Shown: one piece after another, positions 43,834 to 60,258 of the stretch
How the letters are laid out: every line of letters starts with the position of its first letter
How positions within the stretch are numbered: the first letter of the stretch is position 1
NCBI GenBank assembly: GCA_963783385.1
Contig: CAWANJ010000002.1
Span: 320,001-384,000 of the forward strand
DNA: 64,000 nucleotides
Origin: an uncultured Gemmatimonadales bacterium
GTDB taxonomy: Bacteria; Gemmatimonadota; Gemmatimonadetes; Palauibacterales; Palauibacteraceae
Direction of reading: 5' to 3'
The notes under the pieces: generated by a model
Told to the model about the DNA's origin: nothing
The model's database searches: none
What the model saw: the letters and a program-made list of their open reading frames with translations, nothing else
Made by a program: the position numbers and the translations under genes

Positions 43834-44473
43834 CTACTCCGAGGCTCGCCGTGCGCAGAAGTAGCCGTTGGGTGTCGGTGGTCTCCAGAAGCCGACAGCC
43901 CATGTGCCCTTGAGGCCCGTGGAATCGGCTGCCCATACGACCCAATCGGGAGCTCGCCGCGGCCGGACGCTTCCGCTCCGTTCGATCTCTCCTTGTTCCA
44001 AGAAGACGGTGCCGTCCCTTCCCCGCGAACCTACCAGCTGCTTGGACACCTCCACCGATTGAACAATGCGGGCCGTTGCCGGCTGTAGCGAATCGGCCTC
44101 ACCTCTGTCCAGGGCGAGATCAGTTTGTCCTTCGACGAGCCAGGAGAGACCCTTGAGTATTTCAGGGCCTTCGCGTGACCAACGCTCGAGGGTCAAATGG
44201 CCAGACACATCGGAGCCTTTCTGCTCACCCGCCGCGATGTGCATCGTCAGTTCATATGTTCCGGGTAGCCACCCAATCTCGACGACCGAGGCCGCGAGCG
44301 TATCCGGTGGACCACAAGCTCGGATATCCGCCGCTGCCTCCTTTCGTGAATTCTCTTGCCTTGACGGGATACAGGCGATCGCCGACGCTGCCATCACCGA
44401 CGCTGACGATACAGACCAGGCTGCGCCTTACGAACAGGTTTCTGCCGCCCTCGCGTTCGTCCTTGAGCTTCAT
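43834..44473 (-). CDS. Putative immunity lipoprotein for JAB-like toxin A (probable frameshift near 44400)
   Basis: Directly downstream of the Rhs-CT. ASAIAC lipobox-like segment. Paralogous to 46075-46641 (C-x-PPDT...GTW...GYFCA-x-R). Confidence 0.65.
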
Positions 44474-44488
44474 GATTTTCTGAGCGCC

Positions 44489-45778
44489 TCATTGTGGCCA
44501 GGAACAAGTCGTCCAACTGGAATCGGTAGGGGTGTAAACATAGAGCGAACCGGAGATGATTATGTGGGTCGTGTGCCGAGCCTTTGTCGTGAATGTATCT
44601 CGAAGGCTTGGAGCGCCGCCGCCCCAATGCGTATGAAAGTCTCCAGAGGCGCCTGCGTAGAAGGGCACGTGCACAGTGTCTCCTCCTGGTATCCCAGAAA
44701 CGGTTACGTGCAATGGATCGCTCCACGGAGCCCCGTACCAGCCGCCGAATTCCTGCCTGTTTAGCCACGACCGCCTGTAGAGCTTACCTGCCTGCTCGAG
44801 GAAGCTCGCGTTGAATTGACAATTGAACGTGTCGGCCCGAGCAGCCGCGGCTGCTCCACCCCCCGGAGGTCCAAACGCGGCAAAGCCGGAATTGGGGCCC
44901 GCACCGTCACCGACTCCCCCGAGGCCGGTCGCTGACGAGCCGCCATAGCCACCGACGGCCCCCGCACCGCCGCCACCGCCCTGGACGAGGACCTTGAGCT
45001 CCGTCGCCTCATCGCACCACGGATAGGGGGTCCAGGTGAAGTGGCAGTCGAGGTCAGAGGGATCCGTCCCGTTGACCGGACTGTTCCCCACGTAGGCGTA
45101 CGGGTTGATCCCGGCCGCGAGCCCGAGCGGGTCCTCGCTGAGGAAGCGTCCGAGCTCGGGGTCGTAGGAGCGGGCCCCCATGGCGTAGAGACCCTCGTGC
45201 CAGTCGAGCATCTGGCCGGCGTAGCGCAGCCAGTTGGACACCGTGGTCGAGCCGTGCTGGGCGTTCCCCCAGGGGTCGTAGCGGTAGTCGTTGGCCACGC
45301 CCGAGGCGCCGAACAGCCCGAGGACGGAGCCGAGGTCGTCGGTGGCCAGGTAGTGGGTCTGGGCGTCGCTGCGGACGCTGTGGGGCCGGGAGCCGCCGTC
45401 CCAGAGGTAGTGCAGCACGTAGCCGGTCTTGCCGCGCTCGACGCGGCGGCCGAAGCCGTCGTACTCGTAGCGCCACACGGTATCGCCGTCGGCGAGGCTG
45501 TCGAGCCGGCCGCTGGGGCTCCAGTAGAAGCTCTCGTCGACCCCGTTTCCGGACTTGGAGGTGAGCCGGCCGGCGGCGTCCCACGTGAGGCTGTAGCCGG
45601 CGAAGGAGCTCGGCCGATCGGCCGTGTCGATGACGGCGCCGTGGTCGGTGCGGTTTCCCACGGCATCGTAGGCGTAGAGCGCCGAGTCGGCGACGGGGTA
45701 ACCCGAATTGAAGGTGCAGTTGTTCACTTCGATCGAGCCGGGTGTGCAGGTGACGCCCGCGTTGGCCACGCGGTCCAC
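44489..45778 (-). CDS. Orphan Rhs core fragment plus JAB/MPN+-like toxin A
   Basis: YD repeats, ARSYDPELGRFLSEDP, PVNGTDPSD. Tail carries EFGG...FHTH...PSLRD. Confidence 0.8.
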   Translation of the reverse strand: MDRVANAGVTCTPGSIEVNNCTFNSGYPVADSALYAYDAVGNRTDHGAVIDTADRPSSFAGYSLTWDAAGRLTSKSGNGVDESFYWSPSGRLDSLADGDTVWRYEYDGFGRRVERGKTGYVLHYLWDGGSRPHSVRSDAQTHYLATDDLGSVLGLFGASGVANDYRYDPWGNAQHGSTTVSNWLRYAGQMLDWHEGLYAMGARSYDPELGRFLSEDPLGLAAGINPYAYVGNSPVNGTDPSDLDCHFTWTPYPWCDEATELKVLVQGGGGGAGAVGGYGGSSATGLGGVGDGAGPNSGFAAFGPPGGGAAAAARADTFNCQFNASFLEQAGKLYRRSWLNRQEFGGWYGAPWSDPLHVTVSGIPGGDTVHVPFYAGASGDFHTHWGGGAPSLRDTFTTKARHTTHIIISGSLYVYTPTDSSWTTCSWPQ

Positions 45779-46074
45779 GTACCCGGTGAGCTCCTCAGCC
45801 GCTGGCCGAGTTTTCGCGACCTCCGGCCCGGTAAGGAGCCGTCAGGCAACCCGCGCTCGCCAGCCCAAGGGCGAGAGAGTGGATGTCTCCAGACTGCGTA
45901 CAGCCGGGTGTCTCTTTACACAAATGGTCGTCCCGGTCCCGTGGACGAATGGAGCCACATCCGCTCCTGCTGAATTATGGAGGACGTGTCTCGGACCGCG
46001 GCCATGCGCAGCAAAGAAGGCGAAATTTCAGTGGCCGACCGGCTTCGGCGCCTCGGGCGTGAACGCTAGTCTCG

Positions 46075-46641
46075 TCAGGATTCCGGCAGGCGCCAAGCAC
46101 AGAAGTACCCGGCTGGAACAGGTCTAACATTGGTGCCCGCAGACCATGTACCAGTGAACCCAGTTCGGTCACCGTTTTGCACGTCCAGATCCACTCCCTG
46201 ATCGACGGCCATAGCATTGAGACGGGCCCCTCCAACCACGATAAAGAACCGTCCGCGATCCTTGAAGACCAGCACGCCAGGATGCTCTGGGTCCTTCGAC
46301 GAGGGTTCTGGTGATCCAATTGGAACGTTCCCGAGCCGCGTTAGTGGTGCCTCCATCCAGCCGGCGGCCGCCCAGCCAAATCTCCTTGCTCGCGCACTGA
46401 CCTCAAGTGTAAGCCGGCCCTGCACGATCGTATCTCGACGGGCTCCTTGCGTCACATGCAACTCGATAACAAAAACACCCACGAGATTGGCAAATTCGGC
46501 ATCCGGAGTTGATGTTGTGTCGGGCGGCTGGCACTTACTCTGTGTCATGTCCCGGTTCGAATGTGCCATGTCACATTGGCCGCCCACAATAATGAGGCAG
46601 CTTAGCATCAGAACCATTAGGTGAGTAGCTAGCAATTTCAT
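46075..46641 (-). CDS. Putative exported immunity protein for JAB-like toxin B
   Basis: Signal-peptide-like N-terminus, follows the Rhs-CT, paralog of 43834-44473. Confidence 0.65.
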   Translation of the reverse strand: MKLLATHLMVLMLSCLIIVGGQCDMAHSNRDMTQSKCQPPDTTSTPDAEFANLVGVFVIELHVTQGARRDTIVQGRLTLEVSARARRFGWAAAGWMEAPLTRLGNVPIGSPEPSSKDPEHPGVLVFKDRGRFFIVVGGARLNAMAVDQGVDLDVQNGDRTGFTGTWSAGTNVRPVPAGYFCAWRLPES

Positions 46642-46702
46642 CGTGCACCTTGGACGGCCCAATTACTCTGTGCAAGCCGTGGACACGACCGCGTGGTTCG
46701 AG

Positions 46703-47572
46703 TCAGTGCGGCCATCCACAAGCTGTGGTGGACATGTCACCAGGGGTGACCACATAAATGGTGTCGTTGGGCCCGAATATGGCCATTGTAGTTTGATATC
46801 TACGCACCCATACGATATCCGCCCCGCTAGGTCCAGGGTTTCCCCCGAGCCACCGCGGTACAATATGCGCGTGCCAGTTGCCGGAGCTTCCAGGATGAGG
46901 CAAGAGGTAGCCGCTCGTCATTGACGGATCTTGGATTGTATTTCGCAGTGGTCTGTCCCATGGGGGGCCATACCAGCCTCCGCGTTCAGTCGATGCAGCG
47001 TTCGAGTTGTTCCACTCCTCGTTTCCTTGTCGCAGGAAACCAGGACTGAAGCTGCAGTCAAACGTGTCAGCAGCAGCGGTCGCCGCGAACCCTCCGCCGC
47101 CCGGAAGTCCAAAGGCGGCAAAGCCGGAATTGGGGCCCGCACCGTCACCGGCTCCCCCGAGGCCGGTCGCTGACGAGCCGCCATAGCCACCCACGGGACC
47201 CGCGCCGCCGCCACCGCCCTGGACGAGGACCTTGAGCTCCGTCGCCTCATCGCACCACGGATAGGGGGTCCAGGTAAAGTAACAGTCCAGGCCAGAGGGA
47301 TCCGTCCCGTTGACCGGACTGTCCCCCACGTAGGCGTAGGGGTTGATCCCGGCCGCGAGCCCGAGCGGGTCCTCGCTGAGGAAGCGTCCGAGCTCGGGGT
47401 CGTAGGAGCGGGCGCCCATGGCGTAGAGGCCCTCGTGCCAGTCGAGCATCTGGCCGGCCCAGCGCAGCCAGTTGGACACGGTGGTCGAGCCGTGCTGGGC
47501 GCTCCCCCAGGGGTCGTAGCGGTAGTCGTTGGCCACGCCCGAGGCGCCGAACAGCCCGAGGACGGAGCCGAG
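46703..47572 (-). pseudogene. Orphan Rhs core end plus JAB/MPN+-like toxin B, interrupted by IS21
   Basis: PVNGTDPSG, then ERGG...WHAH...PSGAD. The core continues at 49841-49975 on the far side of the IS. Confidence 0.8.
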
Positions 47573-47678
47573 TGTCAATGGACGCCAAGTCTCACGATGT
47601 TAGCGGACGCACAGATTTACGACCCTGCTCCTGCTGGTGATCGTTCACCTCCGGGTTCGGGTGTGCCGGGACGGGTGC

Positions 47679-48461
47679 TCATTTCAGGAGCCGCTCGAGG
47701 TCACGGAGCCGGTAGCTCCTTCCCTTGATGTTGAGGACGTGGCAGTGGTGAAGCAGGCGGTCGAGGAGGGCGGTGGCCATGACCTCGTCGCCGGCCAGCA
47801 CCTCGGGCCAGTCCTTGACGGCCTTGTTGGTGGTGATGAGGATCGAGCCCTTCTGGTAGCGGTAACTGACGAGGCGGAAGAGGAGGCTGGCCTCGAGCCG
47901 GGTCATGGGCTGGAAGCCGACCTCGTCGATGATCAAGAGCGCGACGTTCATGTACTTCTTGGCGCGCAGCCGTCGGGGCGGCACGTCGGCGTCCTTCTTC
48001 AGGCTGTGGAGGAGGTCCTCGAGCCGGAAGAAGGCGACCGAGAAGCCGCTCTCGACCGCCTTGACGCCCAGGGCGACCCCGAGGTGAGTCTTGCCGACGC
48101 CAGGCGGGCCCTGGATGAGGAGCGTCTCTCGCTCGCGGATCCAGGCGCCGGTGGCCAGCGTCTCGATGCGGCTGCGCTCGAGGGAGGGCTGGAAGGCCCA
48201 GTCGAAGTCGGCCAGCGTGTAGCCGGTCGGGAGCCCCGAGAGGCGGAGCGAGGTCTTGATGCGCCGTTCCTCGCGCTGGCGGATCTCGGCCTCCAGGAGC
48301 CGGTCCAGGAAGCGGTGGGGCGGCACGTTCGACTTGACTGCTTCGGAGAGGAGCTCGCCCAGCCGCTCGGCCGCATGCGTGAAACCGAGCTGGACGAGAG
48401 CCTCCTGCGTCCGGTCGACGTCCAGCCGCCCCTTGCGGGCCGACGTCTGCGGGGCGCTCAC
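47679..48461 (-). CDS. istB: IS21 helper ATPase
   Basis: GPPGVGKTH, LIIDEVGF, ITTN, LLDRLLHH, GRSYR. Confidence 0.94.
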   Translation of the reverse strand: MSAPQTSARKGRLDVDRTQEALVQLGFTHAAERLGELLSEAVKSNVPPHRFLDRLLEAEIRQREERRIKTSLRLSGLPTGYTLADFDWAFQPSLERSRIETLATGAWIRERETLLIQGPPGVGKTHLGVALGVKAVESGFSVAFFRLEDLLHSLKKDADVPPRRLRAKKYMNVALLIIDEVGFQPMTRLEASLLFRLVSYRYQKGSILITTNKAVKDWPEVLAGDEVMATALLDRLLHHCHVLNIKGRSYRLRDLERLLK

Positions 48462-49729
48462 CGGGCCACCTCCGCCAGCGCGGCATACAGATCCACGGGC
48501 CGGGCCTCGACGGGCAGGAGGTAGATCTCCTGGAGCTTCCGGCCCATGCGGCCCAGCGGCGGCGGCGGGAGGACGCGGCCTGTGGCCTCGCCCTCGAAGC
48601 AGTCCGGGTCCATGAGGAGCCGCTCGGGCGTGTGCCGCGGGTAGGCCTTGACCACCCGGCCCTCGGCCCAGATCTGGACGACCCCGGCGCAGCCGCGCAC
48701 CTCGACCGCCTGGCCGGCCAGGGCGAAGGGAACCGCGTACTGACGGCCCTCGAAGGCCACCAGGCAGTCCCGGTCCACCCACCGGGTGACCGCCACGTCG
48801 AAGGGCTCGGGCAGGATCGGGAGCGGCCGGAGCCGCTCGAGCTCCCGGCGCCAGCTCTCGTGGACCGTGGCTCCGGTGGCCGGGCACACCGCCGTGCGCG
48901 CCCACCGGTCGATCCTCTCGTCCGTCCAGGCCTGCAGCTCGTCGAGGCCGCCGAAGCGGCGGCCCGCCGGATCCAGCCGCCTCCGCCCCAGCCTCACCTT
49001 GGCCTCCGCCTTCCCCTTGGCCTGCGGCTCCCGCGGCCCGCACGCGTCGATGTGGAAGCCGACCGTCTGCGCGTAGGCCCGGTAGGTGGGATGGATCGTC
49101 CCCCAGGCCCCCGCGCCGCGGCTCAGCGCCGTCTTCACGTTGTCGATGCGGTTCACCGCCGCCACGCCCTCCAGGCGCCGGTAGGCCTCGTTGTGGCAGG
49201 AGAGCCAGGAGACCTGGTCCTCCCGCCGGCTCCACACCGCCGCCGGACGGCGGCTGTGCGAGAGCGTCATCCAGAACAGGTGCAGGGGCTCGGGCCCCTC
49301 GCCCACGTCCACCCGCGCGATACTCCGCCCAGTCCGTCTGCGTCTGCGCCCCCGGAGGCGTCTCCACCCGCCGGTAGGTCCTGAGCTTCGGCCGGGATAC
49401 CGCGCCCTGGCACGTACCGCAGCACCGAGCGGTAGGAGCCCCGGTAGCCGTACTCCGCCGCCAGGTGCTCCCAGAGCTCCTGGACGTTCACCGGCCGCTG
49501 TCTGCTCCTCCCGGTCGGCGAACCAGTGCTCGATCACCCCGGCCAGCCGCTCGGCCCTGTAGGGCCGCTTCGAGCGACCGTCCTCGGCTCCCTCGGCCTG
49601 CCGCCTCAGGTGGTAGCGCACCGTGCCCTCGGTCACCCCCAGGGTACGCGCGATCTCGCAGTGGTTCTGCCTCTTCTCGGCCAGCACCCCGATCGTCACG
49701 GTCTCCTCCCTGCGAAGTCTCCTGGCCAT
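48458..49729 (-). CDS. istA: IS21 DDE transposase (several indels at 49320-49500)
   Basis: N-terminal HTH, ETPPG..QTDW, IDNVK, KGKAE, YAVP. Segments are distributed over three frames. Confidence 0.88.
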   Translation of the reverse strand: MARRLRREETVTIGVLAEKRQNHCEIARTLGVTEGTVRYHLRRQAEGAEDGRSKRPYRAERLAGVIEHWFADREEQTAAGERPGALGAPGGGVRLPGLLPLGAAVRARARYPGRSSGPTGGWRRLRGRRRRRTGRSIARVDVGEGPEPLHLFWMTLSHSRRPAAVWSRREDQVSWLSCHNEAYRRLEGVAAVNRIDNVKTALSRGAGAWGTIHPTYRAYAQTVGFHIDACGPREPQAKGKAEAKVRLGRRRLDPAGRRFGGLDELQAWTDERIDRWARTAVCPATGATVHESWRRELERLRPLPILPEPFDVAVTRWVDRDCLVAFEGRQYAVPFALAGQAVEVRGCAGVVQIWAEGRVVKAYPRHTPERLLMDPDCFEGEATGRVLPPPPLGRMGRKLQEIYLLPVEARPVDLYAALAEVAR

Positions 49730-49840
49730 CGGGGGCACCCTCCTTCGAGCTCGAGGTTCGAAGGTCTCGGTACCCCCGCCACTCCGCAGGGTCGTAAATC
49801 TGTGCGTCCGCTAAGGAGAAAAAGAACCCGTCCCGGCACA

Positions 49841-49975
49841 CCGAGGTCGTCGGTGGCCAGGTAGTAGGTCTCCTCGTCGGCGCGCAGGCTGTGGGGCAGG
49901 GCGCCGCCGGGGAAGTAGGCGTAGGTGGCCTTGAGCGCGGTGGCCCCGGCGTAGACGGCGAACAGGGAGCTTCCG
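49841..49975 (-). pseudogene. Rhs core fragment (5' part of the cassette disrupted by IS21)
   Basis: Encodes GSSLFAVYAGATALKATYAYFPGGALPHSLRADEETYYLATDDLG, nearly identical to the lead Rhs. Confidence 0.85.
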
Positions 49976-49998
49976 CGCCATTGACAGTACTGTGCTGT

Positions 49999-50253
49999 TC
50001 AGGGGTACCGGAGCCCTATAAGCGCCGCCGAAGAAGGAGAATGAGCCGACCAGCCCAGAGCATTCCCAGCGCTGTCGAGATCAGAATGCCAGACGCCAAA
50101 CGAGTGCGATATCGCCCCGTCAAGGCCGAAGGCCAGAAAGCCGACCGCGCTCACTGATGCGCGCAGCAGGGGAGTCATGGGGCGGTTGAGCTTCCTCCAG
50201 GTTCGCTCGAGCCGAGAAATCCTCTGGTCCTCGGAATTCACTGGTAGAATCAA
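49999..50253 (-). CDS. Putative small immunity protein
   Basis: Start overlaps the toxin stop. 84 aa with a hydrophobic segment. Confidence 0.45.
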   Translation of the reverse strand: MILPVNSEDQRISRLERTWRKLNRPMTPLLRASVSAVGFLAFGLDGAISHSFGVWHSDLDSAGNALGWSAHSPSSAALIGLRYP

Positions 50254-51143
50254 TGGTTTAGAGAACAGAATGCCGCCGTAAAGCCAAGGTGGCCAGCTAG
50301 CATACCAAGATCGATTGCTAGTCCGACATCACTGGCCTTCATCAAAGTGGCGCGCACAATCCGAGTCGAGTTCATGAAATGACCGGCCTCCCATGCCGCT
50401 GAGAGCGGCATGTCAAGGCCGGGCATACGCAGCGCTCTTGGAAGGGCAACCACTCCAAGTAGGCTTCCACTGATATAGCTACCTACCGTCGCATCGAAGG
50501 AAAGAGCCGCCGCTTCGCCTATGTCGTTTATGCCCTCCTCGAAGAGCTGTCTTCCCCTGCGGTAGCAGTCGCCGAAGGATGGATCCGACCTTGACAAACC
50601 GCGATCTCCGACGCCGGTGGCGGCGGGCAGCTGTGCCCCAGCGAGACTGCTGCTGTGCAGCGCGCTCCCGGAAGGCCGCGACGTCCCGTTCGCGAGGGCC
50701 GCGGTGAGCACGGTCAATAAGTTGCCGAAGGACCAGCCGCCGCCGCTCCCCTCCACTGCGACAAAGAGACCCGATGACCAGCATGGGTCGTCCCACGTGC
50801 CGCACTCGAGATCGGTGCCCATTGGATCGACGAAGTTGACCGGGCTGTTCCCCACGTAGGCGTAGGGGTTGATGCCGGCCGCGAGCCCGAGCGGATCCTC
50901 GCTGAGGAAGCGTCCGAGCTCGGGGTCGTAGGAGCGGGCGCCCATGGCGTAGAGGCCCTCGTGCCAGTCGAGCATCTGGCCGGCCCAGCGCAGCCCGTTG
51001 GACACGGTGGTCGAGCCGTGCTGGGCGCTCCCCCAGGGGTCGTAGCGGTAGTCGTTGACCACGCCCGAGGCGCCGAACAGCCCGAGGACGGAGCCGAGGT
51101 CGTCGGTGGCCAGGTAGTAGGTCTCCTCGTCGCTGCGGAGGCT
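50250..51143 (-). CDS. Orphan Rhs core end plus hydrophobic helical toxin tail
   Basis: YLATDDLGS...PVNFVDPMG followed by a unique tail with hydrophobic helices. No evident start of its own. Confidence 0.78.
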   Translation of the reverse strand, partial: SLRSDEETYYLATDDLGSVLGLFGASGVVNDYRYDPWGSAQHGSTTVSNGLRWAGQMLDWHEGLYAMGARSYDPELGRFLSEDPLGLAAGINPYAYVGNSPVNFVDPMGTDLECGTWDDPCWSSGLFVAVEGSGGGWSFGNLLTVLTAALANGTSRPSGSALHSSSLAGAQLPAATGVGDRGLSRSDPSFGDCYRRGRQLFEEGINDIGEAAALSFDATVGSYISGSLLGVVALPRALRMPGLDMPLSAAWEAGHFMNSTRIVRATLMKASDVGLAIDLGMLAGHLGFTAAFCSLNH

Positions 51144-51169
51144 CGTGAACTTCTCTTCCGTACATAAGG

Positions 51170-51373
51170 TCACGACTTGAAGCGCCGCCGAGCCGACTTC
51201 TCTCGCTCGGTTCGAGACCAGGAACTCGAACCACCAACGATACCGAAGAGGACGGATAGAGACACGAGGCCTACGGTATCTCCCGTACTCCACTGCCTTG
51301 AGCCCAGATGCGCCAAGAACATCGTTCCAAACACAGGCACGGCGACAAGAATCTCGGTGCATGCTGCGCCCAC
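51170..51373 (-). CDS. Small 2-TM protein, possible orphan immunity gene
   Basis: 67 aa, two hydrophobic segments, basic tail, same strand as the array. Confidence 0.35.
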   Translation of the reverse strand: MGAACTEILVAVPVFGTMFLAHLGSRQWSTGDTVGLVSLSVLFGIVGGSSSWSRTEREKSARRRFKS

Positions 51374-51381
51374 TGGCGCTG

Positions 51382-51906: not shown

Positions 51907-51910
51907 GCAC

Positions 51911-53089
51911 TCATCCCTCCACCCAGCAGTAAACATGCTCTCCGATGCCGTACCGCGCGTCGAACCAACTGACCGACTGCGCCGCTCCACGGAGCACGGG
52001 GTTGGCAGAAGCTACATCAGTTAACACCGGAACGTACTTCCCATTCGAGTAGAACTGGAGGAGGCAACCCCGAATCGAATTCAACCTGGGCGTATCCTCT
52101 ATGTGTTTGCAGATCCAGCCGAGATCCGCTCTGCCGGTGGAGTCATAGATTCTGCATGCGCCCGGCGGCTTTGAGGGCCACCAGTGCTCGGTGCGTCCCG
52201 TGTCAGCCCGAGCAGCCGCACTGGCTCCTCCGCCCGGAGTCCCGAACGCAGCGAAAGCGGAATTGGGGCCCGCACCGTCACTGTCGCCCCCGAGGCCGGT
52301 CGCTGACGAGCCGCCATAGCCACCGACGGCCCCCGCACCGCCGCCACCGCCCTGGACGAGGACCTTGAGCTCCGTCGCCTCATCGCACCACGGATAGGGG
52401 GTCCAGGTGAAGTAGCAGTCGAGGCCAGAGGGATCCGTCCCGTTCGTCGGACTGTTCCCCACATAGGCATACGGATTGATCCCCGCCGAGAGCCCGAGCG
52501 GGTCCTCGCTGAGGAAGCGTCCGAGCTCGGGGTCGTAGGAGCGGGCGCCCATGGCGTAGAGGCCCTCGTGCCAGTCGAGCATCGAGCCGGCCCAGCGCAG
52601 CCAGTTGGACACGGTGGTCGAGCCGTGCTGGGCGTTCCCCCAGGGGTCGTAGCGGTAGTCGTTGGCCACGCCCGAGGCGCCGAACAGCCCGAGGACGGAG
52701 CCGAGGTCGTCGGTGGCCAGGTAGTAGGTCTCCGCGTCGGCGCGCAGGCTGTGGGGCAGGGCGCCGCCGGGGAAGTAGGCGTAGGTGGCCTTGAGCGCGG
52801 TGGCCCCGGCGTAGACGGCGAACAGGGAGCTTCCGTCCCACAGGAAGTGGAGGACGTAGCCGGTCTTGCCGCGCTCGACGCGGCGGCCGAAGCCGTCGTA
52901 CTCGTAGCGCCACACGGTGTCGCCGTCGGCGATACTGTCGAGCCGGCCCGTGGGGCTCCAGTAGAAGCTCTCGTCGACCCCGCTTCCGGACTTGGAGGTG
53001 AGCCGGCCGGCGGCGTCCCAGGTGAGGCTGTAGCCGGCGAAGGAGCTCGGCCGGTCGGCCGTGTCGATCACGGCGCCGTGGTCGGTGCG
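51911..53089 (-). CDS. Orphan Rhs core fragment plus Cys-rich toxin tail of unknown family
   Basis: RTDHGAVID...PTNGTDPSG, the shared DCYFTWTPYPWC linker, then a unique tail of about 95 aa. Confidence 0.8.
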   Translation of the reverse strand, partial: RTDHGAVIDTADRPSSFAGYSLTWDAAGRLTSKSGSGVDESFYWSPTGRLDSIADGDTVWRYEYDGFGRRVERGKTGYVLHFLWDGSSLFAVYAGATALKATYAYFPGGALPHSLRADAETYYLATDDLGSVLGLFGASGVANDYRYDPWGNAQHGSTTVSNWLRWAGSMLDWHEGLYAMGARSYDPELGRFLSEDPLGLSAGINPYAYVGNSPTNGTDPSGLDCYFTWTPYPWCDEATELKVLVQGGGGGAGAVGGYGGSSATGLGGDSDGAGPNSAFAAFGTPGGGASAAARADTGRTEHWWPSKPPGACRIYDSTGRADLGWICKHIEDTPRLNSIRGCLLQFYSNGKYVPVLTDVASANPVLRGAAQSVSWFDARYGIGEHVYCWVEG

Positions 53090-53092
53090 GCG

Positions 53093-53357
53093 CGAGTTCG
53101 TCGAGGGGGAGACTCCGATCGCGGTCCTAAACGCGGGCGGGGAGGCGGCCCGCAAGCGGGAGGAGCGCCTGGCCTGCCTCCGCGCCGCGACGGCGCCGAG
53201 GTGAAGCCTACTGGGCCGCCTCGGCGAGCTGGCCTGAGCCGACGGGACCCTCGTGCCCCCCATGCTGGACACCGTGCGCGCCTTCGCCACCCTGGGTGAG
53301 ATTCGCGCCACGCTGCAGGCGGTGTACGCCAGCTTCCCGGAGCCGCTGACCTTCTGA
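53093..53357 (+). pseudogene. Degenerate copy of the 3' end of the mutase large-subunit gene
   Basis: Colinear with 43517-43790 (e.g. ccccccatgctggac...gccaccctggg...gccacgctg...gcggtgtac...ttctga) with indels and stops. Confidence 0.9.
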
Positions 53358-53452
53358 ACTCTCCGGCTTGAGGCTCTGTCTCTGGTCCATTGCGTGACAG
53401 GTACCTGGGTAACGGAAGCGGCGCTTCAGGCGGCATTGGAAGACAACGCCGC

Positions 53453-53956
53453 TCACTCCTGCCCGGAGCGCTCAGACGAGTTGCCGTTTGCTTCTCGGTC
53501 CTCCCGTACGAGCCCGCGGTGACGCTTCCACCCGTACCTGAACGCCAGGCCATAGAAGGCACCGACCATTGCCCAGGCACCGAGAATGACCGCTGCGTGT
53601 GGGCGCAACCACCAGGAACCAAACCAGCTTATAGAAGTTAGCGCGAATACGAGGACAGTAGCCACGGAGCCGACTAGAGCCGACCCAAGCCACGACGCAG
53701 TCGCGATGGGCCGTAACAGTCCCACGCACATGCCGGCAGTCACGCCACCGAGCAGGTAGAACCCGAGCACCCATCCCCAAGAGATGCGTCGTAGGCCTCC
53801 GAGTTGCTGCACCTCGGTCGTCAGTTCCGCCAACGGATCAGCTCCGATGGCCTTGCCCACGGCTACGACCAGACTCGCGATCGTTCCTAGGACAACCGCC
53901 CATACTATGCCCCACTTCAGGCCCCAGCGGAGGTCCTCTGTCCAGGACCTAGCCAT
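53453..53956 (-). CDS. Putative 4-TM immunity protein
   Basis: Follows the toxin tail, GAGG SD, four hydrophobic segments. Confidence 0.65.
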   Translation of the reverse strand: MARSWTEDLRWGLKWGIVWAVVLGTIASLVVAVGKAIGADPLAELTTEVQQLGGLRRISWGWVLGFYLLGGVTAGMCVGLLRPIATASWLGSALVGSVATVLVFALTSISWFGSWWLRPHAAVILGAWAMVGAFYGLAFRYGWKRHRGLVREDREANGNSSERSGQE

Positions 53957-54013
53957 TATCCTCGACCGTCCCGTCCCAAAGTGCACGAGAAGGATGAGCT
54001 TCGGCTTTCGCCA

Positions 54014-54595
54014 CTAGCCGCCCGTGCACGCTTGAAATGCGTCCCAGATCCTTGCGACGGTTCCAACGACCGGTAGAAGGCGAAGGAGCGTGCCTCCCGT
54101 TCCGTGGCCGCTCGTCACCGTAAGCCCAGTCTTCGCTGACGCCACTTCGGCGATTGCGGGGTCAGCCGTCACTAACCTGACACCAGTACTGACTGCTGAG
54201 GAAATGGTAGTCTGCAGGCCAGCCGCTTTGATCAAGGCAGCCGGAGGAGCTACCGCATCGGCCACGGACCAGCCCCGCGCCAGATTGGTGGTCACATCGC
54301 CGACGAATGCCGTACCTACTTCACCTCCCAAGGCGGCACCACGGAGTGCAATGCCCGTTCCTGCACTCGCGATCACCAGCCCATCCAAAGCAGCCGACAA
54401 CAGAGCGTCTCCAATGGCATGACCGCAATTGGTGCTAGCCGCGCGGAACGCACCGGCTGTAGATAGCGCAGCGTCCCCACCGACGCCTCCGGCAGCAGCG
54501 GCACCCTGCAGAGCCCCGAGGAACCAATCGGACCCCCGCGTGCCGACGGAGCCCATGAAGTTGCGACCGCCATACGACGAGCCCGACGCGACGTC
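54014..54595 (-). pseudogene. Orphan toxin tail (Gly/Ala-rich, hydrophobic) cut off from its Rhs core at an IS end
   Basis: Same Gly linker and C...C layout as the other tails. 5' boundary coincides with the IS terminus at 54596. Confidence 0.65.
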
Positions 54596-54991
54596 TGTCA
54601 ATGGACGCCAAGTCTCACGATGTTAGCGGACGCCTACTTTTACGACCCTGCTCCTGCTCCTGATGGTTCACCTCCGGGTTCGGGTGTGCCGGGACGGGCC
54701 CTCATTTCATGAGCCGCTCGAGGTCCCGGAGCCGGTAGCTCCTGCCCTTGATGTTGAGGACGTGGCAGTGGTGGAGCAGCCGGTCGAGGAGGGCGGTGGC
54801 CATGACCTCGTCGCCGGCCAGGACCTCGGGCCAGTCCTTGACGGCCTTGTTGGTGGTGATGAGGATCGAGCCTTTCTGGTAGCGGTAGCTCACGAGGCGA
54901 AAGAGGAGACTGGCCTCGAGCCGGGTGAGCGGCTGGAAGCCGACCTCGTCGATGATCAGCAGGGCCACGTTCATGTACTTCTTGGCGCGCA
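54596..54991 (-). mobile_element. istB: Truncated IS21 copy (one end plus 3' part of istB)
   Basis: TGTCAATGGACGCCAAGTCTCACGATGTTAGCGGACGC is identical to the sequence at 47573. The istB C-terminus is nearly identical but carries substitutions. Confidence 0.9.
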
Positions 54992-55598
54992 GGCTGGCCT
55001 GGCAAGATCGCGAGGCGGTCAATCACCGCGCCATCTCACTGTGAGACCCAGCGGCCGGCTCCATCGCAAGAAGGCGTCGACACAGAGACGCGTTAGAGCC
55101 AAGGGGCCCGATGCGACAGCCCACGAACAGCGCTCTTCTGCCTTCATGTGCACGAAGGAACCACCGATCATCTTGAAGAAGTCCAAGTCTAGTGCATTGA
55201 CAGCGGAGTCCACTTGTGCCGGCCGACACACGCATCCCGCCCGGCCATAAAGACCGTCTTTGCCGAGAGCGCAATCCGGGCCCAAACCAACGGAGTCGCC
55301 TCCTTTCGGTCCTATCGCACATTCGGGTCAAAGACCCGACGGACTCCCTACTTTCGCAGACTGACCACTCGCAACGTCGCAACTCCCCAGACAACAGGCT
55401 ATCATAGGGAATCAACTCCGCGACATACCCCCAGGGCTTCGCGATTGGCACGCCTCGTCCCCCAGCTGAATCCCCTTGGCTGCACGCACGGCGCTGACGA
55501 GCCTGCTGACCGCACGCAACGCCCTTCTATCGTGTGACATACATGGGTGCGCCCCCAGACGGCTCCCTGCCGTTGTCCATAGGGAATGCTCGCTCGGC

Positions 55599-56096
55599 CT
55601 ATCCAATTCCCACAAAGACGCCGACAATCATGACACCCATTGCGAGGCCGATTAGCAGTCGAGAGACGACCTGGAACTTCCTGCCCTCGGGGGCGAAAGC
55701 CGATAGCGGTGCGAAGAGAGTCCGTGTCCGAAACCTGTGCCTCGTTTCAGCGTCAGGAATATAGCGAAGACCGAAATGTGCAAGAACACTTCCAGCCAAG
55801 CCAAGTATGCCTGCCACTCCGATAATAGGCCACAGCCGTGGTGGGAGGCTGCTCGTCGCTCCCGCGAGGAAGTGCGCATACAATATGAGTAGAGCCACGC
55901 CTAGGAACGCAAATGCAAGAGTCTTATAGAGCAGGCCAGTTGGCTGATACTGCGACAACGGTGCCCAAAAGCCCTTCCTTCGAAGCGATTCTCGCCCGTC
56001 GCCGTCCCTCGCATGGTAACTCGCCAGCCAATTGGCCACGTTGGCGGCGATCACAGCGGCGATTATGCCTATAGTGGGCCAGTCCAAGCTCTCCAT
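55599..56096 (-). CDS. Putative 4-TM immunity protein
   Basis: Follows the toxin tail. Internal two-fold repeat (FWAPLSQYQPTG / LFAPLSAFAPEG). Confidence 0.68.
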   Translation of the reverse strand: MESLDWPTIGIIAAVIAANVANWLASYHARDGDGRESLRRKGFWAPLSQYQPTGLLYKTLAFAFLGVALLILYAHFLAGATSSLPPRLWPIIGVAGILGLAGSVLAHFGLRYIPDAETRHRFRTRTLFAPLSAFAPEGRKFQVVSRLLIGLAMGVMIVGVFVGIG

Positions 56097-56118
56097 CCGT
56101 CTCTCCCGTGCTTCGCAG

Positions 56119-57085
56119 CTAGAAGGCGAAACACCCGGTGTGTCCGCCGAACGACGTCATGTTCACGAAGAGACCCGCTCCACCTCCTGCGTTGAAACCA
56201 GTGCCGGAGAACTTGTGGTTGAGGAAGACGGCATTGGCCCCAAAGTCGCCGTAGCTTCCTTCCAGTTCGATGCTGCCGCCGCCACCGGCCTTGAAGCTCA
56301 ATGCCACCAAGTCGTCAACGCCACCTGTCTGCACCGACACTTCGGCTCCACCCTCCGCTCCATAGCCGAAGGATGGGCCACCATGCCAATACAGAGCATA
56401 TGTATGAGAATGTGTGTTGTCCGAGCCAATAGCCAGCCCGCCTTCTAGGTTTCCACCAAAGCCCTGAGCGTAGATAGTGCCCGCGCCGACACTGTATGTG
56501 CCATTGAGAGAGATGGACTCCGTTACGCCTGTGGCGCAGGTGGTCCGATGCGGAAGGTGTTTCTTGATGAAGGCTGCCGCCTTCACAGCGAAGCCACCGA
56601 AATCACCTTGGCTGAGCATGCCTGCCGTCACCGCCAGGGAATTCCACATGCTGCCAAGGGAGATGCTCTCTGCAAGGGCAAAGGCATAGGCGGCTCCGCC
56701 CCACCGAGACTCGACCGGGACGTGGAGTCCTTGCACTCGATGGACCGGGCAGTCCCATGCGCCCGCGGTGCAGGTGGGCTCGAGCCCACTCGGATCGGTC
56801 CCATTGACCGGACTGTCCCCCACGTAGGCGTACGGATTGATCCCCGCCGAGAGCCCGAGCGGGTCCTCGCTGATGAAGCGCCCCAGCCCGGGATCGTAGT
56901 ACCGGGCCCGCACGTAGGAGAGGCCGGTATGCTTGTTCCACGCGAGGCCGGCGTAGCGCAGCGGGTTGGTCACCGAGCCCGTGGCCACCTGCGGCTCGCC
57001 CCACGGATCGTAGCGGTCCTGGTTCTGGACGCCCGAGCCGTCGAACAGGCCCTCGACCGAGCCGAGGTCGTCGGTGGCGTAGCTC
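56119..57085 (-). CDS. Orphan Rhs core end (diverged variant) plus Gly-rich beta-type tail
   Basis: YATDDLGSV...ARYYDPGLGRFISEDP...GTDPSG followed by a Gly/aromatic alternating tail. Confidence 0.8.
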
Positions 57086-57315
57086 AGCTGGACTTCCCTC
57101 GCGTCCCGACCGACGCTAGCGTTCAGATCGAGAACTCCAGTCGAATGCCGCAGAGGTGCGGTCGCCAACCCGAGACCCACGCCACCTCCGAAGACCTAAG
57201 CCACCGCGTCAGCGATGACCTCCAGACGGCGTGAGGGTGGCCTCGCGTCGCCGTGCGACAATCGGCCCGAACGTGGCGCAATCCAGCTCACTATGTCCGG
57301 AGCGGGTGGAAATCC

Positions 57316-57903
57316 CTACAGGGCCTCCCCGTGCGAATCGGATTCCCACCTGACAGGAATGTGGCGAGCTATAGCTTCAAGAGCTTTCCTGTCCAGCTTG
57401 CTGGCAATGCTGTTGATGGACAAGAAGCCAGCTCTTTCAAGCAGCATACGCCCTCCCGCAGGCTCGAAGCGAAGCACGACCCACCGCAGAATCATGTAGC
57501 GCTCCTGAACGCATACACTTCGGTACCGCTCCCAGGGAAGGAAGAGGCCACCTCCCACAATACCATACTGACCAATACGGTATGACAGCAGTTCCCACCT
57601 GCGGATGCCGTGAATCATGAACCAAGTCGAAGCCACGAGGGCGAGCAACAGGCCGTACTCTGATAGTGCATGCGTCCATCCGCCTCGACCATTGAGAGCC
57701 TGACGCAGCAGATTCACTCCTACCAAGGCTAAGAGGATCAGCGACGCGGACTCGCACAGCACGAGCAGCGCATTCCATATCCCCCGGAGTCGAACGGTAA
57801 CCTCCACCTCGCCAACTCGGCCTTCAGCACTGGAAAGCCTTGCGGCCAATACGAATGCTGCCGGAGAGATGGCCAATAGCCACATGATAATGTCCGAAAG
57901 CAT
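57316..57903 (-). CDS. Putative membrane immunity protein for the lead Rhs
   Basis: Directly downstream of the lead Rhs. About 3 TM segments plus a small C-terminal domain. Confidence 0.65.
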   Translation of the reverse strand: MLSDIIMWLLAISPAAFVLAARLSSAEGRVGEVEVTVRLRGIWNALLVLCESASLILLALVGVNLLRQALNGRGGWTHALSEYGLLLALVASTWFMIHGIRRWELLSYRIGQYGIVGGGLFLPWERYRSVCVQERYMILRWVVLRFEPAGGRMLLERAGFLSINSIASKLDRKALEAIARHIPVRWESDSHGEAL

Positions 57904-57957
57904 GATCTTACCAGGTTTGAGTTTCCGAACAGCCGAAGGCGGGCATGAATGTCGGCT

Positions 57958-60258
57958 TCACTGAAGACAGGCCGCAGTCGGATTGGGAGTTCCAGTGAGT
58001 TCATTAGAGACATAGGCCGTGGTAGCGGCCTCGCCGAGCGCACTTAGGAGCATCACACGCGGTTCATAAATATAGGATATGCCACTGAAGACCAAGCCGA
58101 CGAATGCACCTACCTTCGCTCTCTTCTTCCGAGAGGGCGAAACGTCCGCGGCGTCTATGTCCCGCCACGTGGCTCGAGCAGCTTGAACATCAAAGAACAG
58201 ATTTAGCACGGTGCCCGGCCCAGGAAAGGCTTGGAAAGGTGCGAGATCGAGGACCTCGTAGAGGGCCCGACCGCAAGGATCGTCTAGGGCATCTGCCGGC
58301 TTGCTCACGCCTGCGCGGCCTCCGCTTCCACCCACTGTCGCTGCGGGGTCGGGGCCAAATCCTATTGGCTGCTGCCTTCCCCGATGTCCGAAGTTCTTAG
58401 TAAAACCAGACGTGCGGGGCGTATCAAACGGCCACGCTCCACTCGTGCCGCTGGACTCGACCCACACCCACGCGATTCCGCCGTGGTCGCACACCAAGTG
58501 GAGCCCGTCGTCCATTTGGATCAGGATGCAATTTACCGGATCCATCCCCGACGGATCGGTCCCGTTCACCGGGCTGTTCCCCACGTAGGCGTAGGGGTTG
58601 ATGCCGGCCGCGAGCCCGAGCGGATCCTCGCTGATGAAGCGTCCGAGCTCGGGGTCGTAGGAGCGGGCGCCCATGGCGTAGAGGCCCTCGTGCCAGTCGA
58701 GCATCGAGCCGGCCCAGCGCAGCCAGTTGGACACGGTGGTCGAGCCGTGCTGGGCGTTCCCCCAGGGGTCGTAGCGGTAGTCGTTGGCCACGCCCGAGGC
58801 GCCGAACAGCCCGAGGACGGAGCCGAGGTCGTCGGTGGCCAGGTAGTAGGTCTCCGCGTCGGCGCGCAGGCTGTGGGGCGGGGCGCCGCCGGGGAAGTAG
58901 GCGTAGGTGGCCTTGAGCGCGGTGGCCCCGGCGTAGACGGCGAACAGGGAGCTTCCGTCCCACAGGAAGTGGAGGACGTAGCCGGTCTTGCCGCGCTCGA
59001 CGCGGCGGCCGAAGCCGTCGTACTCGTAGCGCCACACGGTGTCGCCGTCGGCGATACTGTCGAGGCGGCCCGTGGGGCTCCAGTAGAAGCTCTCGTCGAC
59101 CCCGTTCCCGGACTTGGAGGTGAGCCGGCCGGCGGCGTCCCAGGTGAGGCTGTAGCCGGCGAAGGAGCTCGGCCGGTCGGCCGTGTCGATCACGGCGCCG
59201 TGGTCGGTGCGATTCCCCACCGCGTCGTAGGCGTAGAGCGCCGAGTCGGCGACCGTGTAGCCCGAGTTGAAGCTGCAGTCGTTGGGATCGATCGAGCCCG
59301 GCGTGCAGGTCACCCCCGCGTTGGCCACGCGGTCCACGTAGCTGGTGAGCCGGCTCTCACTGTCGTACGTATAGGCCCGGCTCGTGTCCTCGCTCGCCCC
59401 CCGGTAGACCGCGGTCCGCCGGCCGAGCGAGTCCTCGCTGAACGCCTGCCCGAACTTCGCCTCGAGGACGGAGCTGCTCCACGAGAGGGACCCCGTCCGG
59501 TGGGAGGAGGCCACGCCGCGCCACAGCGTGTCGCCGGTCGGGTAGATCACTTTCGTGGTCTGGCGGTCCGCGTCGTAGGCGAAGGTCGTCGCCTGCCCCC
59601 CGGCGTCGATGAGGGAGTCCAGCCGGCCCTGGTCGTCGTACCGGTAGCCCACCGAATCGGTCCACGGGGTCGTCGCGGCGATCTCGGCCCGGCGGCCCTC
59701 CCCGTCGTACCGGCTGTGCAGGACGTAGCGGGTAGAGCCCCGGCGGGTGATCTGGTCCACCACGCGGCCCGCGGCGTCGTAGGTCACCGTGTCCGTGCTC
59801 GCGGCGTTGGAGGCGGCGACGAACAGGCCGTCGGGATCCGTCGTGAACGTGGTGGTGTCGCCCCCCTCGGCGCGCCACGCCAGTTGGCCCAGGGCGTCGT
59901 AGCCGAAGCCCACGGTCTGACCGACCCGGTTCGTCCAGCTCGTGATCCGTCCGTTCGCATCGTAGGCGTACGCGTCGGCGTGGCCGGCGGGATCGGTGCG
60001 CCCGGTGATCCAGCCCAGGGCGTTCCGGTCGAACGAATAGGTCTGTCCGAGGGCGTCGGTCACTCCCGTGACGTAGAGCGAGTCGTACGACAGGCGCGTG
60101 GTGTCCCCCAGGGGGCCGACCGTGAGGGTCACCCGGTTCAGCGTGTCGTAGGCCGTGGTGGCGGTGTGACCGTCGGCGTCGGTGACCTGGACGGTCCGGC
60201 CGTGATCGTCGTAGGCGTAGCGCGTGGTCCTCGCCTCGCTCGACAGCGTCGAGTCCAC
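57958..60258 (-). CDS. Lead Rhs/YD-repeat protein (766 aa) with hydrophobic toxin tail
   Basis: Many YD repeats, Rhs-associated core, PVNGTDPSG. No signal peptide or PAAR/VgrG-type domain. Confidence 0.9.
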   Translation of the reverse strand: MDSTLSSEARTTRYAYDDHGRTVQVTDADGHTATTAYDTLNRVTLTVGPLGDTTRLSYDSLYVTGVTDALGQTYSFDRNALGWITGRTDPAGHADAYAYDANGRITSWTNRVGQTVGFGYDALGQLAWRAEGGDTTTFTTDPDGLFVAASNAASTDTVTYDAAGRVVDQITRRGSTRYVLHSRYDGEGRRAEIAATTPWTDSVGYRYDDQGRLDSLIDAGGQATTFAYDADRQTTKVIYPTGDTLWRGVASSHRTGSLSWSSSVLEAKFGQAFSEDSLGRRTAVYRGASEDTSRAYTYDSESRLTSYVDRVANAGVTCTPGSIDPNDCSFNSGYTVADSALYAYDAVGNRTDHGAVIDTADRPSSFAGYSLTWDAAGRLTSKSGNGVDESFYWSPTGRLDSIADGDTVWRYEYDGFGRRVERGKTGYVLHFLWDGSSLFAVYAGATALKATYAYFPGGAPPHSLRADAETYYLATDDLGSVLGLFGASGVANDYRYDPWGNAQHGSTTVSNWLRWAGSMLDWHEGLYAMGARSYDPELGRFISEDPLGLAAGINPYAYVGNSPVNGTDPSGMDPVNCILIQMDDGLHLVCDHGGIAWVWVESSGTSGAWPFDTPRTSGFTKNFGHRGRQQPIGFGPDPAATVGGSGGRAGVSKPADALDDPCGRALYEVLDLAPFQAFPGPGTVLNLFFDVQAARATWRDIDAADVSPSRKKRAKVGAFVGLVFSGISYIYEPRVMLLSALGEAATTAYVSNELTGTPNPTAACLQ

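Follow-up and report, generated by a model that had tools for sequence, protein, structure and literature searches.

A decayed array of Rhs toxin tails in an uncultured gemmatimonad and the paired-cysteine layout of its probably Sec-exported family

Rhs toxins have been studied almost only as type VI secretion system (T6SS) cargo, which folds in the reducing cytoplasm. Comparative genomics led in 2012 to the prediction of Sec-dependent Rhs toxins, the 'T2SS' (type II secretion system) class of Zhang et al., whose text, in the part covered here, describes the toxin Tox-JAB-1 as Rhs-borne, Sec-dependent and found in Bacteroidetes only, and Imm65 as the only lipoprotein immunity protein of the collection (PMC3482391). 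Bacterial teneurin-like proteins were characterised in 2026 as Sec-targeted YD-shell toxins with small, cleaved, encapsulated, polymorphic C-terminal toxins and with immunity genes; in the covered part of that paper, one of their C-terminal domains (CTDs) is toxic to Escherichia coli only if directed to the periplasm, and the authors state outright that no delivery route is known (PMC13018210). Here we describe an Rhs locus in a window of 64,000 nucleotides (contig CAWANJ010000002.1, positions 320,001 to 384,000) from an uncultured Gemmatimonadales bacterium (genome G000). The locus is an array of seven toxin tails (T1 to T7) with putative immunity genes downstream (I1 to I7; Table 1).

The window array is a decayed Rhs/YD polymorphic-toxin relic and cannot itself make an exported toxin. 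We consider it probable that it is the relic of a family of Rhs proteins that are exported through Sec, fold in the periplasm with paired cysteines (Cys), carry a clamp and a start-to-end staple in the tail, and leave the cell by a T2SS. An earlier reading of the window alone (the original prediction) had noticed the shared Cys design of the tails and proposed a class of disulfide-stabilised, extracytoplasmic Rhs cargo, closer to bacteriocins than to T6SS effectors.

Translation confirms most of what that reading had seen in the tails. Counted from the D of the DPxG junction, Cys stand at positions 10, 23, 95 and 197 of 199 in T1; 9, 16, 87 and 222 of 225 in T2; 7, 17, 94, 109, 124 and 170 of 174 in T4; 9, 16, 88 and 188 of 192 in T5; 7, 17, 83 and 195 of 199 in T6; and 7, 17, 82 and 187 of 191 in T7. 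In the truncated T3 the two Cys are residues 59 and 192 of 195. The counts (4, 4, 2, 6, 4, 4 and 4 from T1 to T7) are even in 7/7 tails, all seven have a Cys 2–4 residues before the stop, and the six tails that retain their junction open with a short Cys loop, each as claimed. Two details needed adjusting. T4, T6 and T7 start DPS(G/D)LDC(Y/H)FTWTPYPWC, so that the DCYF-type loop attributed to all three stands for T4 and T6, and T7 reads DCHF; the other starts are DPMGTDLECGTWDDPC in T5, DPSGLEPTCTAGAWDC in T2 and DPSGMDPVNCILIQMDDGLHLVC in T1. T4, T6 and T7 have a clear version of the Gly/Ser linker said to follow the loop; in T1 and T5 it is moderate, and T2 has only a weak one.

The domains behind the loops had been called otherwise mostly unrelated, and BLASTP agrees. 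T6 and T7 are the sole pair related across the toxin part (57% identity), the loop and linker are common to T4, T6 and T7, and T1, T2, T3 and T5 match no other window tail. We computed chance expectations by randomising Cys positions while holding the Cys number of each tail. The joint probability is 6.9e-7 for a Cys in the last five residues of all six independent families, and 2.9e-5 for two Cys within positions 5–25 of the four independent loops. Cys make up 28 of 1375 tail residues (2.0%) versus 0.70% in a background of 1675 crudely called proteins of the same genome; a Cys in the last seven residues is found in 3.7% of these proteins.

A CaaX-like lipidation signal at the terminal Cys was considered and rejected: anything between 0 and 7 residues separates this Cys from the end, and what follows it is not generally aliphatic. 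Separately, the motif WPF(S/D/G)TPR..G...NFG.RG lies in the loop-to-toxin linker of the T1 tail (58380–58470) and of P0004, P0008, P0015, P0017 and L045, a subset of otherwise different tails, which raises the question of a processing or recognition site.

Whether the pattern is conserved in homologues was one of the checks named in the original prediction, and we ran it on two sets of relatives. The first set comes from a HMMER search with T1 against 1.84 billion representatives, which gave 181,534 matches; the best 150 were used, and the counts of this paragraph hold for those. The last core junction was located by a sequence pattern, which is absent in 28 of the 150. Proteins shorter than 2000 amino acids (aa) with a tail of 120–270 aa form a group of 72. 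In this group 65 tails have at least two Cys in the first 45 residues and 48 have a Cys in the last seven; the Cys count is even in 68, odd in 2 and zero in 2, and exactly four in 43. Four-Cys tails typically place them at about +8, at +18 to +36, at +65 to +115 and 0–6 residues from the end. The other 50 junction-bearing matches, mostly of 2500–7500 aa, have an early Cys pair in 5 cases and a terminal Cys in 3, with even counts in 15, odd in 29 and zero in 6.

The second set is independent of the first and consists of tails read from Rhs loci in a search of 401 genomes of the phylum. A core end was matched at E ≤ 1e-10 in 86 genomes, a tally that includes the window genome and G217. The matches fall mostly in two families (52/166 and 29/94), and the window's own family has one in 29. 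With G217 excluded, 76 tails were read, 73 of them 120–270 aa long; a loop is present in 60 of the 73, and the Cys count is even in 67 and odd in 6. Two Rhs relatives with a named source agree with an origin in Gemmatimonadota: P0012 comes from a Gemmatimonadaceae bacterium and P0061 belongs to Candidatus Palauibacterales.

After pooling, removal of duplicates and exclusion of the window tails, 144 tails remained, whose toxin parts BLASTP groups into 123 families (E ≤ 1e-5 across 60 aa or more). A Cys loop follows the junction in 107/123 families (124/144 tails), and the Cys count is even in 114/123 families (134/144 tails). The last Cys lies within 7 residues of the end in 66/123 families (82/144 tails) and within 15 residues in 79/123 families (97/144 tails); 21/123 families have no Cys beyond the loop. 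Among 16 control tails of proteobacterial and other Rhs proteins (L002–L014), none has the loop or a terminal Cys, and 11 lack Cys altogether. The layout is therefore kept in homologues and lacking in the controls, as expected of the class that had been proposed. Covariation of Cys columns within families was uninformative, with one family of at least four members (the largest, with four).

We infer from these sequence statistics that the Cys pairs are disulfides. An even number of Cys is an established signature of exported disulfide proteins, and pairing of consecutive Cys is the product of a DsbA-type oxidase during export. The cores follow the same regularity as the tails: 41/45 mature cores have an even Cys count, and the gap between consecutive Cys has a median of 7 residues within a pair versus 167.5 between pairs. 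Only one pair in these proteins is long-range, the one at the two ends of the toxin domain. Six-Cys tails usually have a second short loop before the final long-range pair, and in tails without a terminal Cys the last two Cys are usually 3–11 residues apart. Because loop-only tails exist, the first two Cys probably form a unit of their own. The first of them sits 1–4 residues past DPxGL, the conserved autocleavage site, and therefore both ends of the freed fragment would be pinned. Many of the longer loops are beta-hairpin-like, and the linker that comes next is rich in Gly, Pro, Ser and Thr and not conserved.

Export from the cytoplasm is suggested by the N-termini of the relatives. A simple rule finds a signal-peptide-like N-terminus in 45/60 full-length relatives; the remaining 15 mostly resemble gene calls that were cut short. 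The locus in a same-genus metagenome-assembled genome (locus L001, genome G003) encodes a 1514-aa ortholog with an in-frame RARPPVAVAVGLLALLIGVGALHA/QG signal-peptide-like stretch upstream of its first canonical start; in this ortholog Pfam finds RHS repeats only and no PAAR/VgrG-binding N-terminal domain. Matches to TssC (PF05943) number zero in the window genome and in G003, G011 and G035 (completeness 92–97%), and matches to PAAR (PF05488) zero in the window genome (92% complete). The window genome has VKOR and DsbA-like (Thioredoxin_4) genes side by side (contig C1:692862–693805), likely the disulfide-forming pair of the organism. Four more Thioredoxin_4 matches lie elsewhere in it.

A route across the outer membrane is suggested by gene neighbourhoods. 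Annotation with Pfam and NCBIfam of the first ten upstream regions shows, in five, a T2SS operon, a receiver-less sigma-54 activator and, immediately after them, the Rhs gene. These operons encode GspE, GspF, pseudopilins, GspK, GspM and GspD; GspM is above its curated cut-off, and the secretin scores higher as GspD than as PilQ. Among 20 further upstream regions analysed with tblastn, five have GspM, GspD and the activator in the same order and three have the activator alone. The full arrangement is thus present in 10/30 full-length loci and 10/23 genomes of the phylum (L115–L118, L121, L128, L131, L135, L140 and L142). A GGCAC-N6-TGC element occurs 21–84 nucleotides before the Rhs start in 6/10 of the first loci, against 0.01 expected per 250 nucleotides; it was chosen after inspecting the sequences, so the enrichment is indicative only. 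The strict sigma-54 consensus TGGYAY-N5-TTGC has no match before the Rhs starts.

The genes downstream of the tails point to where the toxins may act. In the window, four of the seven encode polytopic membrane proteins, two lipoprotein-like proteins, and one product is unclear. In the second set, a downstream open reading frame could be called for 66 of the 73 tails and not for the other 7. Tails with at least two Cys beyond residue 45 are followed by an envelope-type protein (transmembrane segment or signal peptide) in 41/48 cases and the remaining tails in 7/18 (Fisher p = 0.0004, from relatives that are not fully independent); for loop-only tails the figure is 4/14. A family-level table made with an earlier rule has the same direction (p = 0.026). 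The association of envelope immunity with a Cys in the last 7 residues is only weak (p = 0.037 and 0.027), and any Cys pair beyond tail residue 45 is the clearer variable.

In our reading, every tail has a delivery or packaging part that includes the first loop, and disulfides within the toxin domain are the sign of cargo remaining in the envelope. The original prediction of disulfide-stabilised, extracytoplasmic cargo outside the T6SS thus gains support, which comes from the even Cys counts in tails and cores, the signal-peptide-like N-termini, the membrane and lipoprotein genes downstream in the window, the T2SS neighbourhood in relatives, the TssC and PAAR searches, and the VKOR and DsbA-like genes. 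In the wider family the loop-only tails go with soluble immunity proteins, so not all cargo of the class would act outside the cytoplasm. As an observation on the partners themselves, I6 (46075–46662), I7 (43834–44397) and the immunity protein at L001 5704–6342 have a Cys near the mature start (C(Q/G)PPDT) and another 6–7 residues before the end (GYFC), the same start-to-end layout as the toxins.

The mechanism that we favour would run as follows. The Rhs protein would be exported through Sec by its N-terminal signal peptide and fold in the periplasm, where a DsbA/VKOR-type system would oxidise the Cys in consecutive pairs. Shell Cys would form short local loops. The first tail pair would clamp a hairpin 1–4 residues after the autocleavage site, and in most tails a second, long-range pair would tie the start of a toxin domain of about 100–130 residues to its last residues. 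Pinning both ends of the fragment should stabilise a small toxin working in the periplasm or membrane of the target, which fits the membrane or lipoprotein immunity proteins encoded beside such tails. The outer membrane would most likely be crossed by the T2SS encoded, with a sigma-54 activator, upstream of the Rhs gene in many relatives. Delivery may then be diffusible, as with bacteriocins, or the protein may stay bound to the surface or depend on contact.

Several observations weigh against this mechanism. Odd Cys counts occur in 8/144 pooled tails, a Cys within 7 residues of the end in only 82/144, and the T7-type tail of L001 has five Cys, the extra one at residue 1481. The length limits of the first set were chosen after seeing the matches, and these limits do not use Cys. 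Disulfides are deduced from statistics, and an AlphaFold2 model of the T6 tail from a three-sequence alignment was unusable (mean pLDDT, the predicted local distance difference test, 36.1; pTM, the predicted template modelling score, 0.28). The envelope rule is crude hydropathy that flags 48.5% of crudely called genome proteins, and the downstream reading frame was chosen by the analyst. No T2SS lies directly upstream in 20/30 full-length loci. The window genome and G003 have no GspM match and two secretins each, versus three in two T2SS-linked genomes, so the Rhs copy of the window's own genus appears to stand without a T2SS machine. In L001 no canonical start codon is in frame with the signal-peptide-like stretch, and the nearby ATG lies in another frame. 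The near-C-terminal tail Cys of a bacterial teneurin-like protein bonds to the shell plug and not within the tail, according to the covered text of its description (PMC13018210).

With regard to L001 1000–1146, the ATG is at 1082, just after a run of ten C (1060–1069), and a sequencing error, a real defect or a phase-variable tract are all possible.

A bolder version would give Gemmatimonadota a dedicated and so far undescribed weapon: it would make the whole folded, disulfide-bonded Rhs capsule the cognate substrate of a sigma-54-controlled T2SS, with bacteriocin-like release, and would let the tail Cys layout encode the destination of the cargo, with a universal hairpin clamp at the N-terminus created by autocleavage and a staple only on toxins that stay in the oxidising envelope of the victim. 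We regard this as a tentative extension and lean somewhat against it. An unlikely but distinct function for the terminal disulfide is that of a latch, which would keep a membrane-inserting or enzymatic toxin closed and inactive in the shell and in the producer periplasm until it is opened at the target by reduction or thiol exchange, or which would force release by shell opening, as a closed loop cannot thread a narrow pore. That the long-range pair is the only non-local one and goes with membrane-type immunity proteins would suit a latch, as would the hydrophobic or Gly/Ala-rich stretches of T1, T3 and T5 and the redox-controlled processing of a CdiA toxin described in the covered part of a preprint (10.64898/2026.05.07.723447). 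The target periplasm is oxidising, with no obvious reductant there, and the present data do not separate a latch from a staple.

Some tail Cys might instead be linked to Cys in the Rhs shell or plug, so that the cleaved toxin stays tethered to its carrier, as in the Bacillus teneurin-like protein whose CTD Cys2216 (of 2237), in a similar near-C-terminal place, forms a disulfide with FN-plug Cys719 in the covered part of its description (PMC13018210). A single tail-to-core link would make both counts odd, but tails (134/144) and cores (41/45) are each even alone, and unrelated orphan tails keep the pattern though they recombine onto one core. Metal binding would have to explain a spacing of C-x5-36-C and then C-x~100-C, unlike CxxC sites; the single CxxC...CxxC tail is a control (L004). 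We hold both the tether and the metal site to be improbable. Ordinary T6SS or contact-dependent Rhs effectors, made reduced in the cytoplasm and oxidised by the target's DsbA in the target periplasm, would also carry disulfides where they act. Periplasmic T6SS effectors that need DsbA were reportedly found by Mariano and colleagues in 2018. The absence of TssC matches in four genomes and of PAAR in the window genome (completeness 92–97%), the signal-peptide-like N-termini (45/60), the paired Cys throughout the shell and the T2SS neighbourhood make this reading very improbable. Least probable of all is that the layout has no present function and was inherited from one ancestral tail or arose as a chance regularity: the window locus is a relic and T4, T6 and T7 do have loop and linker in common by descent, but 123 BLAST-unrelated toxin families keep the layout while all else differs, the window-only joint probabilities are low, and control Rhs tails are without it.

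The relic state of the window locus follows from comparison with L001, which has the same two flanking genes and, between them, one Rhs gene, still full-length and joined to a T7-type tail, and one immunity gene. By blastn, L001 3–936 corresponds to window 61191–60260 and L001 3400–5117 to window 60269–58553. The window is without L001 937–3399 (about 2.46 kb), which holds promoter-proximal DNA, the signal peptide and the N-terminal ~745 codons. No open frame reaches upstream of the T1 GTG, and T1 has only 567 core residues, fewer than the ~1200+ that a whole shell, including its N-terminal plug, has ahead of the tail. Public contigs indicate two alleles of the Rhs locus: contigs of runs X3, X4 and X8 depart from the window at 60260/60266 and go on into the full-length allele, and one contig of run X1 spans the deletion junction. 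The latter is not independent support, because X1 may be the source sample.

Decay extends into the array. The T6 orphan is split by an IS21 element, for which an 8-base target duplication is inferred because L001 4840–4847 occurs on both sides of the insertion. The T3 junction is lost beside an IS21 remnant. T3 was once a complete member of the design, because P0061 (41% identity to T3 over 167 aa) has a DPSGLRCYFVWTSFPWC loop, of the DCYF type, ahead of a T3-type toxin, with four Cys at 7, 17, 88 and 220 of 222. In I7 the signal-peptide part is in another frame than in the ortholog; this may be a real frameshift or an error of the assembly. The ancestral tail is T7; C-terminal displacement stacked T1 to T6 ahead of it. 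What the array preserves is a fossil series of past tails, and in relatives the system is alive. The 3' IS21 remnant (54702–55022) adjoins the truncated T3 cassette, which suggests a deletion mediated by insertion sequences. Arrays of relatives (L123 15905–17747; L120 10005–11732) have sigma-54 activator and Rhs core fragments between cassettes, which suggests duplication or recombination of whole activator-Rhs units.

Table 1. Features of the Rhs island, in window coordinates (TM, transmembrane)
Feature	Coordinates	Strand	Basis or detail
Deletion junction	60260..60269	.	~10 bases common to both flanks
T1: main Rhs gene remnant, 766 aa	57958..60258	-	core 58546-60258, tail 57958-58557
I1: putative T1 immunity protein, membrane, at least 2 TM-like segments	57316..57903	-	hydropathy scan
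T2: orphan core end + tail (TC..DC loop, TTC...TGCFAF)	56119..57180	-	TIGR03696
I2: putative immunity protein, 4 TM-like segments	55599..56096	-	hydropathy scan
IS21 remnant (C-terminal 106 aa of IstB), abuts truncated T3 cassette	54702..55022	-	PF01695 IstB_IS21 E 4e-34, profile 138-234/238
T3: tail without junction or loop (TNC...QACTGG)	54014..54601	-	P0061 similarity
I3: putative immunity protein, 4 TM-like segments	53453..53986	-	hydropathy scan
T4: orphan core end + 6-Cys tail (DC..WC loop, GAC...VYCWVEG)	51911..53311	-	core homology from ~53089
I4: putative immunity protein, 4 TM-like segments	51382..51990	-	hydropathy scan
T5: orphan core end + tail (EC..PC loop, GDC...AFCSLNH)	50250..51506	-	core homology 50842-51132
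Possible I5, at most 84 aa, uncertain	49999..50253	-	sole open frame directly after T5
T6 orphan core, 5' part, cut off by IS21	49841..49975	-	99% identical to L001 4713-4847
IS21-family element inside T6 orphan	47577..49840	-	istA 48458-49738, istB ~47679-48500; rve/Mu-transpos_C_2, IstB_IS21 E 2e-71
T6: orphan 3' part + tail (DC..WC loop, FDC...TACGWPH)	46703..47578	-	JAB/JAMM-like motif E...HxH...SxxD
I6: lipoprotein-like immunity protein	46075..46662	-	signal peptide, then CQPPDT...GYFCAWR
T7: oldest orphan (FNC...TTCSWPQ)	44489..45778	-	L001 4779-7175 matches window 45398-43001 at 94%
I7: lipoprotein-like immunity gene	43834..44470	-	intact 212-aa ortholog L001:5704-6342

The array coordinates of the original prediction, 43834..60258, are right: the last immunity gene ends at the one, and the start codon of the shortened main gene is at the other. 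All parts of the locus are on the minus strand, and the array runs from T1 to T7 from high to low coordinates. The island of 16.9 kb separates a methylmalonyl-CoA-mutase-type large-subunit gene (42066–43790, +) from a gene for a B12-binding subunit (60708–61130, +); its cassettes have a G+C content of 58–65% versus 70–75% in the flanks. No second Rhs locus was found in the 3.54-Mb assembly by tblastn with T1. In the cores, searches with Pfam and NCBIfam pick up RHS/YD repeats as well as the Rhs-associated core domain: T1 matches PF05593 RHS_repeat (E 9.7e-36) and TIGR01643 (100.7 bits), and T1, T2 (90.5), T7 and L001 match TIGR03696 Rhs_assc_core at about 90 bits (cut-off 32.5). The T1 core is 98% identical to residues 749–1319 of the L001 ortholog, the T2 core is divergent (59–68% identity), the T1 tail combines an NC..VC loop with DPC...AACLQ, and the T4 tail is identical to that of P0067. 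The motif PxxxxDPxG(L) before the variable tail is invariant in the 6/6 cassettes that retain it, and this conservation predicts tail release by autoproteolysis at DPxGL. The real start of I4 is probably downstream of 51990, and the I5 candidate has no TM-like segment at the hydropathy threshold used.

Pfam and NCBIfam recognise nothing in any tail or immunity protein (I1–I4 and I6 in the NCBIfam immunity search), and at E ≤ 10 the sole Pfam match of the seven tails is a meaningless one to DUF5577 (E 8.7). In T6/T7-type toxins, E106, H144, H146, S159 and D162 are invariant in 3/3 sequences, and the ESM Atlas gives T6 a lead to DUF4329/Toxin-JAB1 (score 0.91). Together with lipoprotein partners that carry GYFC, T6 and T7 would fit the Tox-JAB-1/Imm65 pair; membership is unproven. 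At E ≤ 10 T6, T7, I6, I7 and the L001 immunity protein match no Pfam model, including Toxin-JAB1 (PF15659) and Imm65. A sequence profile search of the PDB with the T6/T7 alignment gave 11 matches, none meaningful (best E 0.23), and none of 694 candidate proteins of 832–2650 aa matches the T7-type toxin part at E ≤ 0.001. T1, T3 and T5 have hydrophobic or Gly/Ala-rich stretches which, with their membrane partners, suggest that they may be membrane-active toxins. For the T4 toxin part the best ESM Atlas score, 0.83, is at noise level.

The observation from which this work started is confirmed and extended, and its interpretation is so far supported by sequence statistics and gene context. If it is right, a large branch in uncultured lineages apparently makes its whole Rhs capsule in the oxidising periplasm and probably exports it through a T2SS. 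One simple rule of sequence (Cys in pairs, a clamp just past the site of cleavage, a start-to-end staple) spans more than 100 unrelated toxin domains and tracks the location of immunity, which would make it a cheap predictor of the compartment that a toxin targets. It also supplies more than 100 candidate small, disulfide-stabilised antibacterial domains, and turns outer-membrane crossing and cargo release of Sec-dependent YD-shell toxins into a testable question. A full-text literature search, with most subscription journals and supplements outside its scope, returned no account of the Cys rule, of Rhs proteins from Gemmatimonadota or of linkage between T2SS and Rhs genes.

Among known systems, the family shares YD repeats and a core ending in PxxxxDPxGL with the rhs loci of E. 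coli and Salmonella and with the T6SS effectors Tse5, RhsA and RhsP. Rhs loci with orphan tails likewise have variable C-terminal toxins of ~150–230 aa, an immunity gene after each of them, and arrays in which C-terminal displacement has left cassettes of core end, tail and immunity gene. Unlike T6SS Rhs proteins, the family has signal-peptide-like N-termini and paired Cys through shell and tail, and no PAAR/VgrG link or sheath gene was found in the genomes searched; 0/16 control tails of the proteobacterial type have the Cys layout. Pediocin-like class IIa bacteriocins have a C-terminal disulfide, and pore-forming colicins have polytopic membrane immunity proteins of 3–4 helices. Bacteriocins and colicins resemble the tails, on the reading favoured here, in being extracellular antibacterials with disulfide-pinned ends or with membrane immunity, but they are free peptides or three-domain proteins and not cargo of an Rhs shell, and there is no sequence relationship.

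The Sec-dependent class of Zhang et al. consists of Rhs proteins with signal peptides and polymorphic tails, and it comes close in T6/T7 and I6/I7: Tox-JAB-1 and Imm65 have the motifs E, HxH, S and D on one side and a signal peptide, lipobox and YxC on the other, and the window pairs, with GYFC, look alike. The covered text of Zhang et al. uses the 'T2SS' label with neither a linkage to T2SS genes nor the word 'disulfide' (PMC3482391). Bacterial teneurin-like proteins have a Sec-targeted YD shell and a near-end CTD Cys in a disulfide, as predicted for the family here. They have the teneurin superfold (FN-plug, NHL propeller and TIP domain), whereas the L001 ortholog shows RHS repeats only in Pfam, and their disulfide joins tail to plug; the covered text of their description contains no Cys rule, T2SS linkage or Gemmatimonadota (PMC13018210). 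T4 has a sub-threshold TEN_YD-shell match (15.9 bits versus a cut-off of 50).

The two-part tails resemble those of CdiA-CT, in which a variable N-terminal module with a disulfide precedes the toxin, and which include ionophoric toxins with membrane immunity (PMC11630599, citing Bartelli et al. 2019). In the covered text, CdiA-CT differs by type V secretion, by helical entry domains that bind inner-membrane receptors and by having no terminal staple (PMC11630599). In place of such entry domains, the tails described here have a short Cys-clamped, often beta-hairpin-like loop followed by a Gly/Pro/Ser-rich linker.

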